Shown: one piece after another, positions 1 to 51,107 of the stretch
Position numbering within the stretch: position 1 is the first letter of the stretch
Layout: each line of letters opens with the position of its first letter
Source of the DNA: an uncultured bacterium
GTDB lineage: Bacteria > Actinomycetota > Acidimicrobiia > Spongiisociales > ZC4RG35
DNA length: 60,670 nt
Direction: 5' to 3'
Assembly (NCBI GenBank): GCA_965364515.1
Contig: CBDTXZ010000001.1
Coordinates: forward strand, 1-60,670
Position numbers and translations under genes: made by a program
The notes under the pieces: generated by a model
What the model saw: the letters and a program-made list of their open reading frames with translations, nothing else
The model's database searches: none
Told to the model about the DNA's origin: nothing

Positions 1-63
1 ACGCTCCACGCCACACGCTCCACGCCACACGCTCCACGCCACACGCTCCACGCCACACGCTCC
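1..63. repeat. Tandem array of the 14-nt unit ACGCTCCACGCCAC (two CACGC-type heptads), about 4.5 copies, cut by the window edge
   Basis: Read directly. The unit repeats exactly at 1-14, 15-28, 29-42 and 43-56, with a partial copy at 57-63. Confidence 0.95.
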
Positions 64-106
64 TGACATTGCGCTCCGCCCGACCGCTCGCCGTAGTACG
101 CCCTCG

Positions 107-151
107 GCGTGATGCGTGATGCGTGATGCGTGATGCGTGATGCGTAGCGTG
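107..151. repeat. Tandem GCGTGAT heptads x5 plus about 1.5 degenerate units, of opposite polarity to the CACGC array at 1-63
   Basis: Read directly. GCGTGAT occurs at 107, 114, 121, 128 and 135, then GCGTAGC and GTGAC. GCGTG is the reverse complement of CACGC, so the two arrays can pair as a bulged hairpin. Confidence 0.9.
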
Positions 152-164
152 ACCTTCGCCTCTG

Positions 165-629
165 GTGCGCTGGAGCCGGGGTCAACAGCATCAATCCATG
201 GAGCTTCCGGTCCAATTCGAGAACGCCCAGAAGCGAAGGCAGGCGCTTCGGGAAGCACTGACTGTGCTCGAACAGGCCTTGGCAATGGCCGCATCGTCAC
301 CTGCCTGGCGGTCGACGGTGACCCGGGCACTGGTCGAAGTCCGAACTGCCCTCGAGGCACACATCGACGAGGTCGAGGCGAGCGACGGATTGCTCACTCA
401 GTTGATCGCCGATGCCCCGAGATTGTCGAACCGCGTTCGCATCCTGGAGCGCGATCACCGGCGCATGCTCGATGCCTGTGACGAGATCATCTCGGTGGCG
501 TCCGGGGCGGACGCACACGAGATCCGTTCCATGGCCCGAGAACTGATGGGAGACATGGTCGACCACCGCCAGCAAGGAGCCGACCTCGTCTACGCCGCCT
601 ACTCCGAGGACATCGGCGGTCAGGGCTGA
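165..629 (+). CDS. Hypothetical helical protein; the start may be ATG 198 (MELPVQFEN...)
   Basis: Longest ORF in this region with G/C-rich third codon positions. The overlapping ORFs are Arg/Pro-rich, as expected for off-frame reads. No family recognised by eye. Confidence 0.6.
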   Translation: MRWSRGQQHQSMELPVQFENAQKRRQALREALTVLEQALAMAASSPAWRSTVTRALVEVRTALEAHIDEVEASDGLLTQLIADAPRLSNRVRILERDHRRMLDACDEIISVASGADAHEIRSMARELMGDMVDHRQQGADLVYAAYSEDIGGQG

Positions 630-717
630 GACCGACGCGGGTGCCAGAGGACAGATACAGGGCAGTGGGGACGAACGGCACTTCTCACGCGCCCTGACGG
701 CTGTCGACCATGTTCGG

Positions 718-48347: not shown

Positions 48348-48803
48348 GTGATCGAACTTCACTGTCCAACCGATGCCGATACCCGCGCCGCTGCCCGTCG
48401 CCTCGCTGCGCTGTGCCGCCCCGGTGACGTGATCGTGCTGAACGGGAGTCTCGGTGCCGGGAAGACGGCCTTTGCCGGCGGACTCGCCGATGGCCTCGGG
48501 GTGGACGAACCGGTCACCAGCCCGACGTTCGTCCTCATGCGAACCTACCGCTCTGGGTTCCTGCCCTTTTTCCACGTCGATGCGTATCGCCTCGGTTCCA
48601 TCGGAGAATTCGAGGATCTCGCCGCCATCGAGAGTTCCGAAGAAGGGGTCGTCGTGATCGAGTGGGGTGGCGCCGTCGCCGCAGCACTTCCGAAAGACCG
48701 ACTGGAGGTCGACTTGACACGCAACGACGACGAGTCCCGGACGATCCGTCTCCGCCCGGCGGGTTCGTGGACGACCCGCCAACTCAATGAGATCGAGGCC
48801 TGA
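48348..48803 (+). CDS. tsaE: tRNA t6A37 biosynthesis ATPase TsaE
   Basis: GSLGAGKTAFAGGL P-loop and VTSPTFVLMRTY motif. Confidence 0.92.
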   Translation: MIELHCPTDADTRAAARRLAALCRPGDVIVLNGSLGAGKTAFAGGLADGLGVDEPVTSPTFVLMRTYRSGFLPFFHVDAYRLGSIGEFEDLAAIESSEEGVVVIEWGGAVAAALPKDRLEVDLTRNDDESRTIRLRPAGSWTTRQLNEIEA

Positions 48804-49522
48804 TGCGGGTTCTGTGCATGACCACATCCACACCCGCGTCGTCGGTTGCGCTCACGGAGGACCGCCAGGTGGTTGCTTCTGCGAGTCGAATCGACGCCCG
48901 CGGGCACTCGGCGTTCCTGGTGCCTGCAATCGACTTCTGCTTCGACCAGGCCGGATGGACCCCGATGGACATCGACGCAGTCGTCGTCGACGTCGGTCCC
49001 GGCCTCTACACCGGGATCCGGGTGGGCCTCTCGACTGCGCAGGCGATCGCTGCCGCCATCGGTGCGCCGCTCGTGCCGGCGACCTCGCTCGACGCCATAG
49101 CCCTCCGCGCCGCCACCGGCAGACGCAGGATCCTGGCGATCGTCGACGTCAGGCGCGGCGAGTACGCAGCCGCTTGGTACAACCCCGTCCCCGGAGGCGT
49201 GGTGAAGGACGGACGGCCCGAGATCATGACCGCAGCCGAGGTCCGCGCGCTGCTCGATTCGGAGCCCGAGGACGTCTTGTTGGTGGGTGACGCCCAGAGT
49301 CTCCCCGAAGAGCTGCTCACCGGCATGCATCGGGTCAAGATCGGTCGGCCCCGCTACCCGAGCGCGGGGACCCTCGCCGAGGCGGCGGCCGGGCAACTGC
49401 TGTCGGACTCGACGATGCACCCCGACGAGGTGCGTCCGATGTATCTCCGTGACCCGGACGTTTCGATCAACTGGTCGATCATCGACGATCAGGGGCCGTG
49501 GGCGCGGATGGAGGGGGAATGA
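48803..49522 (+). CDS. tsaB: tRNA t6A37 biosynthesis protein TsaB
   Basis: ATGA overlap. VDVGPGLYTGIRVGLSTAQAIA motif. Confidence 0.92.
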   Translation: MRVLCMTTSTPASSVALTEDRQVVASASRIDARGHSAFLVPAIDFCFDQAGWTPMDIDAVVVDVGPGLYTGIRVGLSTAQAIAAAIGAPLVPATSLDAIALRAATGRRRILAIVDVRRGEYAAAWYNPVPGGVVKDGRPEIMTAAEVRALLDSEPEDVLLVGDAQSLPEELLTGMHRVKIGRPRYPSAGTLAEAAAGQLLSDSTMHPDEVRPMYLRDPDVSINWSIIDDQGPWARMEGE

Positions 49523-50019
49523 GCGCTGTGACGAGCCTCACCATCCGGCGAATGCAGGAAGCCGACATCGAGCTCGTGACCGTGCTCGAGGAGAAGGCGT
49601 ATTCGCAGCCGTGGAATGCCCACATCTTCGTCGAGGAGCTGCGCCAGCCGTCCCGCACGTATCTGGTCATCGAGGACATCGAGTCCGTCCTGGGCTATGC
49701 GGGATTGATGGTGGTGGGCTCCGAGGCCCACGTCACCACCGTCGTCGTGCACCCCGAGCGAAGGGACGACAAACTCGGGACCCGGCTCATGCTCGGACTC
49801 GCCGCCGAGGCGATCGAGCGAGGAGCCACATCGATGACCCTCGAGGTCAGAGCATCGAATGAGCCCGCCCAGCGGCTCTACCGCCGATTCGGCATGGCGC
49901 CGGTCGGTGTCCGCAAGAAGTACTACCAGGACGAGGACGCCATGATCATGTGGGTACACGACATCGACGGGCCCGAGTTCGCGGCCCGGATGACCGAGAT
50001 CGCGGCGGCACTCCCATGA
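49519..50019 (+). CDS. rimI: Ribosomal-protein-alanine N-acetyltransferase (GNAT)
   Basis: ATG 49519 overlaps the tsaB stop. GNAT motifs ([17 protein letters not shown]) and synteny between tsaB and tsaD. Confidence 0.88.
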
Positions 50020-51020
50020 TCTCGCCGACGATCCTCGCGTTCGAGACCAGTTGTGACGAGACCGCCGTTGCGGTCGTACGCGGCACCGAGGTGCTGTCGA
50101 ATGTGCTGTCCTCGCAGATCGATCTCCACGCCCGTTTCGGCGGAGTCGTCCCCGAGGTGGCCTCCCGGGCCCACGTCGAGGCGATTCGAGGCCTCACCCA
50201 TCGAGCACTCCAGCAGGCCGGAGTCCATCCCGCTGATCTGGACGCGGTCGCTGCAACCGATGGTCCCGGTCTGGTTGGAGCTCTCCTCGTGGGCCACTCC
50301 TTCGCCAAGGCGACGGCGTGGGCGCGTCAGCTTCCGTTCGTCGGCATCGACCACATGGAGGGCCACCTGTTCGCCCCGATCCTCCAGCACCCCGAATACC
50401 GCCCGCCGGCGATCGTGCTGCTCGCCTCGGGTGGTCACAGCCAGATCGTCCATGTCAAGGATTGGGGCGATTACGAGGTGCTCGGCTCGACCATCGACGA
50501 CGCCGCCGGCGAGGCATTCGACAAGCTTGCACGTGTGATGGGCCTCGGCTTCCCCGGTGGTCCGGCGATCGACGGGGCCTCCGACGGTGGCGATCCCGCC
50601 GCGATCGCCTTCCCCCGAGCCATGCCTGAACGCCGCCATCACTTCTCGTTCTCCGGTCTCAAGACGTCGGTGATGACGTATATCGAGAAGGCAGAGGCGT
50701 CTGGCGATCTCGCCCCGCTTGCCGATGTCGCCGCCTCGCTCCAGGAGGCGATCGTGGATGTGCTCGTCGCCAAGACGTTGAACGCAGTCGAGGACACCGG
50801 CGTGAAGGTGGTCGGTGGAGGCGGCGGGGTTCTGGCGAACCGCCGCCTTCGCCAGAAGCTCTCCGAGCAGTGCGCCGAACGTGGCATCGAGCTCTATCTG
50901 CCCACACCTGCCCTGTGCACCGACAACGGCGCAATGATCGGTGCCGCGGCCGTCCACTGGCTCGACAAGAACGTCATCTCCTCGTGGGATGCCGTCGTCG
51001 ACCCTGGCCGGAGCCTGTAG
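50016..51020 (+). CDS. tsaD: tRNA N6-adenosine threonylcarbamoyltransferase
   Basis: ATG 50016 overlaps the rimI stop. [24 protein letters not shown] and [11 protein letters not shown] motifs. Confidence 0.96.
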
Positions 51021-51072
51021 AGCCCGCCTCCCGCTCTGCGAACTGCACAAGCCGATGCGGCCTAGCGATTGA

Positions 51073-51107
51073 GCGTGGGGCGTGTTGCGTGGGGCGTGAG
51101 GCGGCTC
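51073..51107. repeat. Five GCGTGNN heptads, reading as CACGCNN on the minus strand directly after the minus-strand stop
   Basis: GCGTGGG GCGTGTT GCGTGGG GCGTGAG GCGGCTC, read directly. The last unit overlaps the TGA of the 51106..51873 gene. Confidence 0.9.

Follow-up and report, generated by a model that had tools for sequence, protein, structure and literature searches.

Heptanucleotide repeat arrays between the ribosomal-protein genes of an uncultured Acidimicrobiia population and their probable origin by slippage

Why should a bacterium carry runs of 7-nt repeats between the genes of its most conserved operons, and how do such runs change once they are there? The question is raised by a 60.7-kb stretch of DNA (65% G+C), called the window throughout, from a metagenome-assembled genome of an uncultured member of the Acidimicrobiia. 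The sequence-only reading of this DNA had described a recurrent family of tandem arrays that repeat exactly every 7 nt, each unit having a conserved core of 4-5 nt and 2-3 variable positions. We compared these heptad arrays with the orthologous sites of related lineages and strains. They probably represent lineage-specific heptanucleotide repeat families that are driven by slippage and evolve in concert, with effects on RNA that are secondary.

Arrays were counted if they had 4 or more units and if 5 or more of the 7 columns were invariant. By this criterion there are 10 at period 7 in the window, compared with a mean of 0.02 and a maximum of 1 in 50 third-order Markov simulations, which bears out the recurrent periodic family. 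Overall, 10-11 arrays stand against 0.02-0.4 expected. Other periods between 5 and 14 gave 0-2 arrays each, and a lag-identity scan of the window at a fixed score threshold returned 7 matches at period 7 and 0-1 at periods 4-12. Tandem Repeats Finder, run on the raw sequence, recovered every array listed earlier at its position or a few bases from it; together with our own scans it gave 4-9 units per array and a period of exactly 7 or 14. The earlier list had missed one partner arm (24038-24067) and had not recognized that the array at 24583-24649 is itself two-armed. The word CACGCNNCACGC occurs 27 times in the window against 0.6 expected. The pentamer CACGC is under-represented (190 versus 263 expected), and the arrays are therefore not derived from an abundant word. 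At five independent CACGC loci (five loci in 60 kb), the variable positions fall in the same two columns. All 11 of 11 window arrays lie outside coding sequence, where intergenic DNA (spacers of at least 25 nt) makes up about 7% of the window.

The same excess is seen in related lineages. About 90 Acidimicrobiia loci around secY, designated by L numbers, with SecY identities of 53-97% and covering the ribosomal-protein neighbourhood only, were compared with the window. This set (686 kb) contains 66 arrays at period 7 and 0-3 at each of periods 4-11. Nearly all of the arrays in relatives (93 of 97) lie outside called genes, the intergenic share of the DNA being 10%. By gene orientation, arrays are present in 53 of the 370 spacers between tandem genes, in 4 of 24 between convergent genes and in 1 of 22 between divergent genes; the deficit in divergent spacers relative to tandem and convergent ones together (1/22 versus 57/394) has the expected direction, in a sample too small for significance. 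The distribution among lineages is patchy. L129, L141, L143 and L165-L171 are rich in arrays, while other lineages have none, including L126, then a marine clade with 35% G+C, and also nearly all loci at 53-59% SecY identity.

In the ribosomal S10-spc-alpha region of the window, arrays stand at rpsJ/rplC, rpmD/rplO, secY/adk and adk/map, and 3' of map and of rplQ. The first four sites are intercistronic spacers inside the ribosomal-protein cluster, as had been proposed, and their lengths depend on the array. The median rpsJ/rplC spacer is 49 nt in loci with an array and -2.5 nt in loci without one, and the corresponding medians are 48 and -4 nt at rpmD/rplO, 110 and 13.5 nt at secY/adk, and 103 and -4 nt at adk/map. 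These comparisons show that the arrays create spacers, separating genes that overlap or nearly abut in array-free relatives. At rpsJ/rplC, five single-armed CGCC[A/G]CA units (11696-11730, plus strand) begin right after the rpsJ stop codon (11695). This much of the earlier description holds, but rplC does not follow the array directly; its true start lies at 11745 (MSDQATKEE...). L126 and L127 have no array at this junction and the two genes overlap at ATGA, whereas the window and L129, a relative with 97% SecY identity and 87% nucleotide identity to the window, have an array together with a new Shine-Dalgarno sequence, and the rpsJ end looks imperfectly duplicated (18 nt) around the array. 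Across the junction (11676-11747), the duplicated copies read GTGGAGATCAAGCTGTGA and ATGGAGGTCTCGTCATGA with the array in between, and the second copy contains both the GGAGG Shine-Dalgarno sequence of rplC and its ATGA start.

The other arrays of the cluster, all on the plus strand, follow similar lines. Four CGTC[T/A]CA units (20575-20602; a 14-nt repeat present exactly twice) start 2 nt past the rpmD stop codon, and weak pairing with a G-rich stretch after the array is possible. At secY/adk, five ACGCNNC units (22523-22557) directly past the secY stop form the 5' arm of a hairpin, whose 3' arm of 4.4 GCGTGCT units (22558-22592) reaches to just before the Shine-Dalgarno sequence and start codon (22602) of adk. 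A GTG inside the second arm gives rise to an ORF start at 22560, which is spurious because adk begins at 22602; array-made ORF extensions of this kind had been predicted correctly. At adk/map, 4-5 [G/A]TCAGC[T/C] units (23146-23180) begin 4 nt past the adk stop and are followed by a second arm of 4.4 CAGCCGA units (23197-23232) that is complementary to the first at 5 of 7 positions. The A.C mismatches between these arms on the sense strand would be G.U pairs on the antisense strand. After the map stop, four weakly conserved NNCTGCG units (24038-24067) are the partner arm, absent from the earlier list, of five degenerate CGCATNN units with one indel (24108-24145). This TGCG/CGCA family recurs at the same site in L129, where the two-arm arrangement is also kept, and 5' of the hemerythrin gene in L209. 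Finally, four single-armed CACGCNN units (31214-31241) lie 11 nt past the rplQ stop, directly 5' of a terminator-like hairpin (31240-31271) that is not itself an array and has a 14-bp perfect stem and a T-rich tail.

Although L129 has arrays at the same four junctions as the window, their units differ. The rpsJ/rplC unit is CACGCCN in the window and CACGTTT in L129 and L215. The two arms at secY/adk are built of CACGCNN and GCGTGCT in the window and of TCACAGT and ACTGTCR in L129, with other cores in L124 and L125, and those at adk/map of CAGCTAT and CAGCCGA in the window and of GACAGAT and ATCTGTC in L129. The comparisons show concerted evolution, in which all units of an array, in both arms, change together between relatives. 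Cores also tend to be shared within a genome: array pairs at different junctions agree in at least 6 of 7 unit positions in 25% of within-genome comparisons and in 3.7% of between-genome comparisons (p = 3e-16). GTAC-type cores are found in L143 and L165, GACTGG-type cores in L168 and L171, and CACGC together with TGCG/CGCA cores in the population of the window.

A separate observation concerns the rplO/secY spacer of the window (21113-21202), where a conserved hairpin is present and the sequence from there to the secY start is a C/U-rich tract that is conserved as well. When the window is compared with L124, L126, L127 and L129, 8 of the 22 predicted pairs of this hairpin are kept through two-sided changes. 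The arrangement has the look of a classical conserved leader, and Rfam contains no match to it. The more distant L135, L138 and L141 have heptad arrays in place of the hairpin.

Turnover is also visible among strains, compared here through contigs that come from other samples but have identical flanking proteins. Among the first contigs of the same strain (L001-L003) no copy-number variation was seen; it emerged with the addition of more loci and strains. The arrays at secY/adk, adk/map, the map 3' end and the E2-like gene (see below) are unchanged in other samples, and the rpmD/rplO array is unchanged in strains 96-99.9% identical to the window. At rpsJ/rplC, L216 differs by the substitution of a single unit. 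The array 3' of rplQ varies in copy number, with 4 units in the window and at least 18 in L219 between flanks that are 99.4% identical; L221 is identical to the window here and L218 carries another allele. A comparison of unit numbers at orthologous junctions, suggested earlier as a check, thus yielded both a clear length change and several constant sites. In L217 and L220, with flanks 99% identical, ATGCGGT-type heptads replace the CACGC array from the rplQ stop codon exactly.

A second replacement concerns the hemerythrin site at the start of the window. In L209, L210 and L211, from three samples, a much longer TGCGS:SCGCA hairpin stands in place of the CACGC:GCGTG hairpin, and these strains match the window from position 148 onward at 99.92% (L209: 5 mismatches and no gaps over 6,482 nt). 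Positions 1-147 of the window and 1-307 of L209 are wholly different, which represents either replacement in place or a recombination breakpoint, the window beginning inside the array. Exact 14- and 21-nt higher-order repeats occur in window positions 1-63, in L219 and in L209, and these are footprints of recent multi-unit slippage. The strain comparisons show arrays that grow and shrink by whole units of 7, 14 or 21 nt.

Three array sites lie outside the ribosomal cluster. The first is 5' of the hemerythrin-domain gene (198-629), where a CACGCNN arm (1-63, plus strand) is clipped by the window start and consists of an exact 14-nt higher-order repeat (ACGCTCC ACGCCAC) in 4.5 copies. It is the 5' side of a hairpin whose complementary 3' arm, 5.6 GCGTGAT units (107-151, plus strand), ends 47 nt 5' of the gene. 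The second is the two-armed CAGC-type array (24583-24649, plus strand), which forms one hairpin at the 3' end of an SLH-gene remnant. Its spacer is convergent and is bounded by the dinB stop. The remnant itself is an ORF with a single SLH domain (24063-24626). L125, L126 and L129 have an SLH-domain gene of 484-491 aa here, so that about 1.1-1.2 kb is missing from the window, and heptad arrays flank the remnant at both ends. The third site follows a minus-strand gene (51106-51873/52005) that had been called E2-like, and the acyltransferase domain of 2-oxoacid dehydrogenases was indeed found in its product. Four CACGCNN units (51073-51104, minus strand) start about 1-7 nt past its stop codon (51106-51108), in the convergent spacer between this gene and a TsaD-like gene (50016-51020).

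The arrays thus take two forms: two-armed, in which a 5-nt core recurring every 7 nt is accompanied by a nearby arm with the complementary core, and single-armed. As had been proposed, RNA folding of two-armed arrays predicts long bulged hairpins, made of 5-bp stems separated by 2x2 internal loops that correspond to the variable positions. The predicted folds of 1-150 and 24575-24690 have energies of -64.4 kcal/mol (z -3.3) and -50.4 kcal/mol (z -2.7). The remaining two-armed sites have modest z-scores, and several array spacers reach only -0.8 to -1.3. Among the loci compared, 16 of 26 neighbouring array pairs have consensus units that are reverse-complementary at 5 or more of 7 positions. 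Random pairings give 12%, so about 3 of 26 would be expected, and by our own arithmetic the binomial tail is near 1e-8. Cores containing 4-bp palindromes (GTAC, ACGT, AGCT, GCGC) were considered as a signal and dropped; by our estimate, about one third of random heptads hold such a tetramer.

The sequence-only reading had recognized no named family in these repeats. In this respect it did not stand, since intergenic heptanucleotide repeats have already been described in cyanobacteria, Xanthomonas (GGGAATC), Beggiatoaceae (TAACTGA) and Chloroflexus (GATAGRA), and CACGCNN arrays occur in many phyla. We scanned one genome per GTDB species for exact runs of four CACGCNN units and obtained at least 120 stretches. 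Those listed span Chloroflexota, Streptomyces and other Actinomycetota, Vulcanimicrobiota, Verrucomicrobiota, Planctomycetota, Gemmatimonadota, Proteobacteria and more, and a further 85 stretches with the four-unit pattern lie on viral contigs. The listed stretches also hold 103 period-7 arrays that have other cores. In 804 kb of loci from other phyla, 231 arrays pass a uniform threshold at period 7, compared with 2-24 at each other period tested. Taken together, the occurrence of CACGCNN across phyla and the general excess of period 7 make CACGCNN one instance of a cross-phylum heptanucleotide excess. The arrays from other phyla, among the matches listed, are mostly perfect repeats and single-armed. 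Using the longest spanning ORF as a test of intergenic location was uninformative in these phyla because high-GC genomes have long spurious ORFs. Among the CACGCNN matches listed (L004-L123), the commonest dominant variable dinucleotides are AT (28 loci) and CT (22 loci). The AT unit, CACGCAT/ATGCGTG, is that of window positions 107-145; many of its examples are from Chloroflexota and Vulcanimicrobiota, which may be a sampling effect.

According to Mrazek et al. 2007, as cited in PMC4679880 and PMC4692102, heptanucleotides are the most abundant class of long simple-sequence repeats, and 7 nt was proposed there to be the stretch of DNA held by the polymerase, favouring slippage. Other heptamers described are the tandem heptanucleotides of cyanobacteria and the Chloroflexus GATAGRA repeat. 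The arrays of the window share with the long simple-sequence repeats the exact 7-nt tandem units in a few to tens of copies, the statistical excess over other unit lengths, the intergenic location, the scattered phylogeny that includes Actinobacteria, and the variation in copy number and sequence among relatives and strains. On these shared features we file them in this class: the window arrays are members of the known over-represented intergenic heptanucleotide repeats, here in Acidimicrobiia. Differences remain, in that many window arrays are imperfect, with a fixed 5-nt core and two free positions, and in that they stand in the S10-spc-alpha cluster at junctions that overlap in array-free relatives. 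To our knowledge, the Acidimicrobiia have not been described as a heptad-rich lineage, and our literature search found no paper on heptamer repeats in them.

Among the closest parallels are the GGGAATC repeats of Xanthomonas and the GGGGA(T/C)T repeats of Nostoc (PMC4692102), in which one heptamer family occupies many intergenic sites. In Xanthomonas, inverted array pairs are frequent (70-75 per genome), the arrays are mostly at the same intergenic positions in sister species with extensive variation in length and sequence, and the single or inverted-pair type is usually preserved (PMC4692102). The window and the loci of its relatives likewise have a heptamer at many loci of one genome and frequent inverted pairs. 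However, the Xanthomonas and Nostoc units are G-rich and form G-quadruplexes or i-motifs, which the window units (CACGCNN, CGTCNCA, CAGCNNN, CGCATNN) cannot do as they have no G3 or C3 tracts. In the window, moreover, several families coexist and replace one another at a given site. The cyanobacterial tandem heptanucleotides termed STRR, of which CCCCAGT is an example, have no known function. STRR of Calothrix and Nostoc (cited in PMC4692102) resemble the present arrays in forming several dispersed non-coding families per genome; membership was rejected, as the window units differ from the STRR sequences and the host, to judge by the SecY homologues that bear names, belongs to the Acidimicrobiia and is not a cyanobacterium. 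The TAACTGA repeats of Beggiatoaceae occur in 2-6 copies at more than 100 intergenic sites, including ribosomal-protein operons, and a post-transcriptional role has been proposed for them but not shown (PMC4679880). They are AT-rich, contain built-in stop codons and lie mostly a few nucleotides 5' of start codons (PMC4679880), whereas the window arrays are GC-rich, abut stop codons and often have inverted partners.

Longer repeats were also considered. Like REP/BIME and MIRU elements, the arrays are repetitive, transcribed and intercistronic; REP hairpins lie near stop codons and MIRU elements occur in actinobacterial operons. REP sequences are conserved imperfect palindromes of about 20-40 nt (around 35) that are mobilised by RAYT, MIRU units measure 46-101 bp, and CRISPR consist of 23-50-nt repeats with unique spacers between them. 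REP/BIME was rejected as the arrays share no palindromic unit, their arms being 7-nt repeats with locus-specific variable positions, and no transposase domain was found in 30 window proteins. MIRU and CRISPR were rejected because of the 7-nt unit and the lack of spacers. The Rfam search that had been proposed gave 0 matches at gathering thresholds over the whole window.

How did the arrays arise? The probable account given at the outset can be spelled out as follows. Replication slippage in steps of 7 nt, a bias that earlier authors have proposed, would generate the arrays, and their units would become homogenised within each array. Template switching or ectopic conversion may make the inverted arms and spread a family between sites. 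Arrays would persist only where coding and ribosome-binding constraints permit. In a polycistronic mRNA, two-armed arrays would form bulged stem-loops between cistrons and single arms unstructured spacers. Translation of the neighbouring genes would be uncoupled by them, and local mRNA stability might be altered. We regard such RNA consequences as side effects or weakly selected effects, not as a designed regulatory function.

Several findings weigh against slippage as the whole explanation. As a local process, it does not explain why one 5-nt core is re-used at unlinked junctions, or how a whole array is exchanged for another family at the same site in near-identical strains. The confinement of variation to the same two columns at the five CACGC loci looks like a constraint on the core, and some arrays are unchanged over 3-4% flank divergence, unlike a purely neutral hypermutable tract. 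The preference for a 7-nt unit is left unexplained. In addition, the comparison of sense and antisense stability described below covers 14 pairs only, and the relatives were sampled in the ribosomal-protein neighbourhood only.

Could the arrays instead be selected cis-acting RNA elements of polycistronic mRNAs? Two-armed stem-loops would then set the stability or translation of neighbouring cistrons, by blocking 3'-exonucleases, offering an RNase III site or stalling ribosomes, and in single arms an RNA-binding protein would recognize the 5-nt core in phase, once per 7 nt. There are precedents for both parts: ribosome stalling has been reported for REP hairpins within about 15 nt of a stop codon, and HutP reads NAG triplets at a 7-nt phase. 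Arrays are found almost only in transcribed spacers 3' of stop codons. At secY/adk and adk/map, both arms change together and the two-armed layout is nevertheless preserved. The core positions are paired and conserved, with the two variable positions in internal loops, and across the five CACGC loci the core is kept while NN is free. In all CACGC arrays of the window the C-rich strand is the sense strand, directly after the stop codon, and some arrays are invariant among strains that are 96-99.9% identical. These points speak for such a role, which the following tests make rather doubtful.

The placement just after stop codons, a central point of the sequence-only reading, can be traced largely to another cause. 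In the 53 array-bearing tandem spacers of the relatives, the median distance is 14 nt from stop codon to array and 31 nt from array to the next start codon, and the shorter gap is on the stop side in 34 spacers and on the start side in 18. A post-stop bias is therefore present, but allowing about 15 nt for a ribosome-binding site removes most of the asymmetry, and the placement is largely explained by the room that the downstream ribosome-binding site needs. A hairpin selected in mRNA should tolerate G.U pairs on the sense strand and fold better than its antisense. For 14 two-armed arrays, the sense RNA was the more stable in 6 and the antisense RNA in 8, and at adk/map the antisense was far more stable (-54.2 versus -27.3 kcal/mol). 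With only 14 pairs, this test does no more than weaken a selected RNA role. The unremarkable fold z-scores of several array spacers point the same way, as do the many sister lineages without arrays, in which genes simply overlap, and the near-identical strains with unrelated alleles. Arm order and C/G skew are not conserved in relatives, and no Rfam family matches.

It is quite unlikely that a dedicated trans-acting machinery spreads the arrays as non-autonomous mobile or copy-paste elements, in the manner of RAYT-mobilised REP or the small dispersed repeats of Nostoc. Such spreading would fit cores that unlinked junctions of a genome have in common and that differ between sister lineages, the exchange of the CACGC family for the TGCG/CGCA family at the same site between flanks at least 99% identical, the patchy distribution among Acidimicrobiia, the imperfect 18-nt duplication around the rpsJ/rplC array and the CACGCNN arrays on viral contigs. 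However, a Pfam scan of 30 window proteins found no transposase, RAYT or integrase, and the arrays have neither defined ends nor regular target-site duplications. There is continuous variation in the length of arrays and loops and in the sequence of units, and exact higher-order repeats and changes in unit number are typical products of slippage. The heptads of other phyla, again among the matches listed, are mostly perfect, single-armed simple-sequence repeats.

The single-armed arrays had also been compared to Rho loading (rut) sites. The genes rpsJ, rplQ and the E2-like gene would then be followed by Rho-dependent termination or polarity. We consider this very improbable and rejected it as a classification. 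The single arms of the window are C-rich and G-poor on the sense strand, start 0-11 nt past stop codons and, at rpsJ/rplC, rplQ and E2, fold worse than shuffled sequence (z +1.3 and +0.7). Rho loading usually needs 60-80 nt. The arms, at 28-35 nt, have about half of that length, and termination between rpsJ and rplC would cut off the remainder of the S10 operon. The sense-strand richness in C does not extend to the relatives, where C exceeds G in 19 single arms and G exceeds C in 12, a difference that is not significant, and alleles at the same site can be G/T-rich (L217, L220). Intrinsic termination fares no better as a role for the arrays. A promoter and terminator consensus scan of 11.5-31.4 kb found no array that qualifies as an intrinsic terminator, and no array is followed by a U-tract. 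The sole intrinsic-terminator-like site near any array is the separate 14-bp hairpin at 31240-31271, which already accounts for termination after rplQ.

An origin of the arrays in faulty assembly or sequencing, which might be suspected as short-read contigs often end in or at arrays and one scaffold has an N-gap inside an expanded array, can be set aside, since identical arrays occur in assemblies made independently of each other, from separate samples and by separate pipelines (Logan, ENA, JGI), arrays stand at orthologous junctions in many lineages, and they never disrupt reading frames. In the population of the window, the short-read contig ends in question (L213, L214, L217, L220, L210, L211) lie inside an array or about 20-55 nt away, and the N-gap is in L219. 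In practical terms, the arrays fragment short-read metagenome assemblies and mislead gene callers on start codons.

Some further features of the window lie apart from the arrays. The rpsC gene (14990-16210) encodes an S3 protein of 406 aa, compared with 342 and 361 aa in L126 and L127; a 27-nt tandem duplication is present at 15743-15795, so that S3 seems to carry an extension that is variable and contains repeats. Coding tandem repeats of 12, 15 and 24 nt, of the TCGTCCGAGTCA kind, occur at 38635-38930 in a minus-strand gene (38622-39452; 276 aa, no Pfam match) that adjoins an ECF-type sigma-factor gene (37988-38497). Directly 5' of rpsJ, 493 nt (10885-11377) have no called gene; the usual tuf gene is absent there, and a ferritin-like protein and a small uncharacterized protein are encoded before the gap.

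Since the first reports of heptanucleotide repeats, it has been asked why bacteria accumulate repeats of 7 nt and what these repeats do. The Acidimicrobiia population studied here is a compact natural experiment on this question. The arrays stand in the most conserved operon cluster of the genome, and orthologous junctions can therefore be compared over many lineages and strains. Such comparisons bring out insertion at formerly overlapping genes, concerted change of two arms, genome-specific cores and allele replacement at less than 1% flank divergence, and they narrow the range of models, as slippage by itself cannot produce every one of these features. Since core re-use, two-column variation and clean swaps are not explained by slippage alone, there is room for a so-far unknown trans-acting factor that might write, copy or read heptad arrays. 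We consider such a factor unlikely. Examples would be a polymerase or recombinase that acts in steps of 7 nt and a multimeric protein that binds nucleic acids and recognizes 5-nt cores phased at 7 nt. If such a factor existed, it would explain together the preference for 7 nt across phyla, the genome-specific cores, the inverted arms and the clean family swaps, and the arrays would have to be counted as a true genetic system, whether a mobile micro-element or a post-transcriptional regulon, and not as slippage debris. The main interest here lies in unusually clear comparative evidence on the origin and turnover of heptad arrays inside the most conserved operons.

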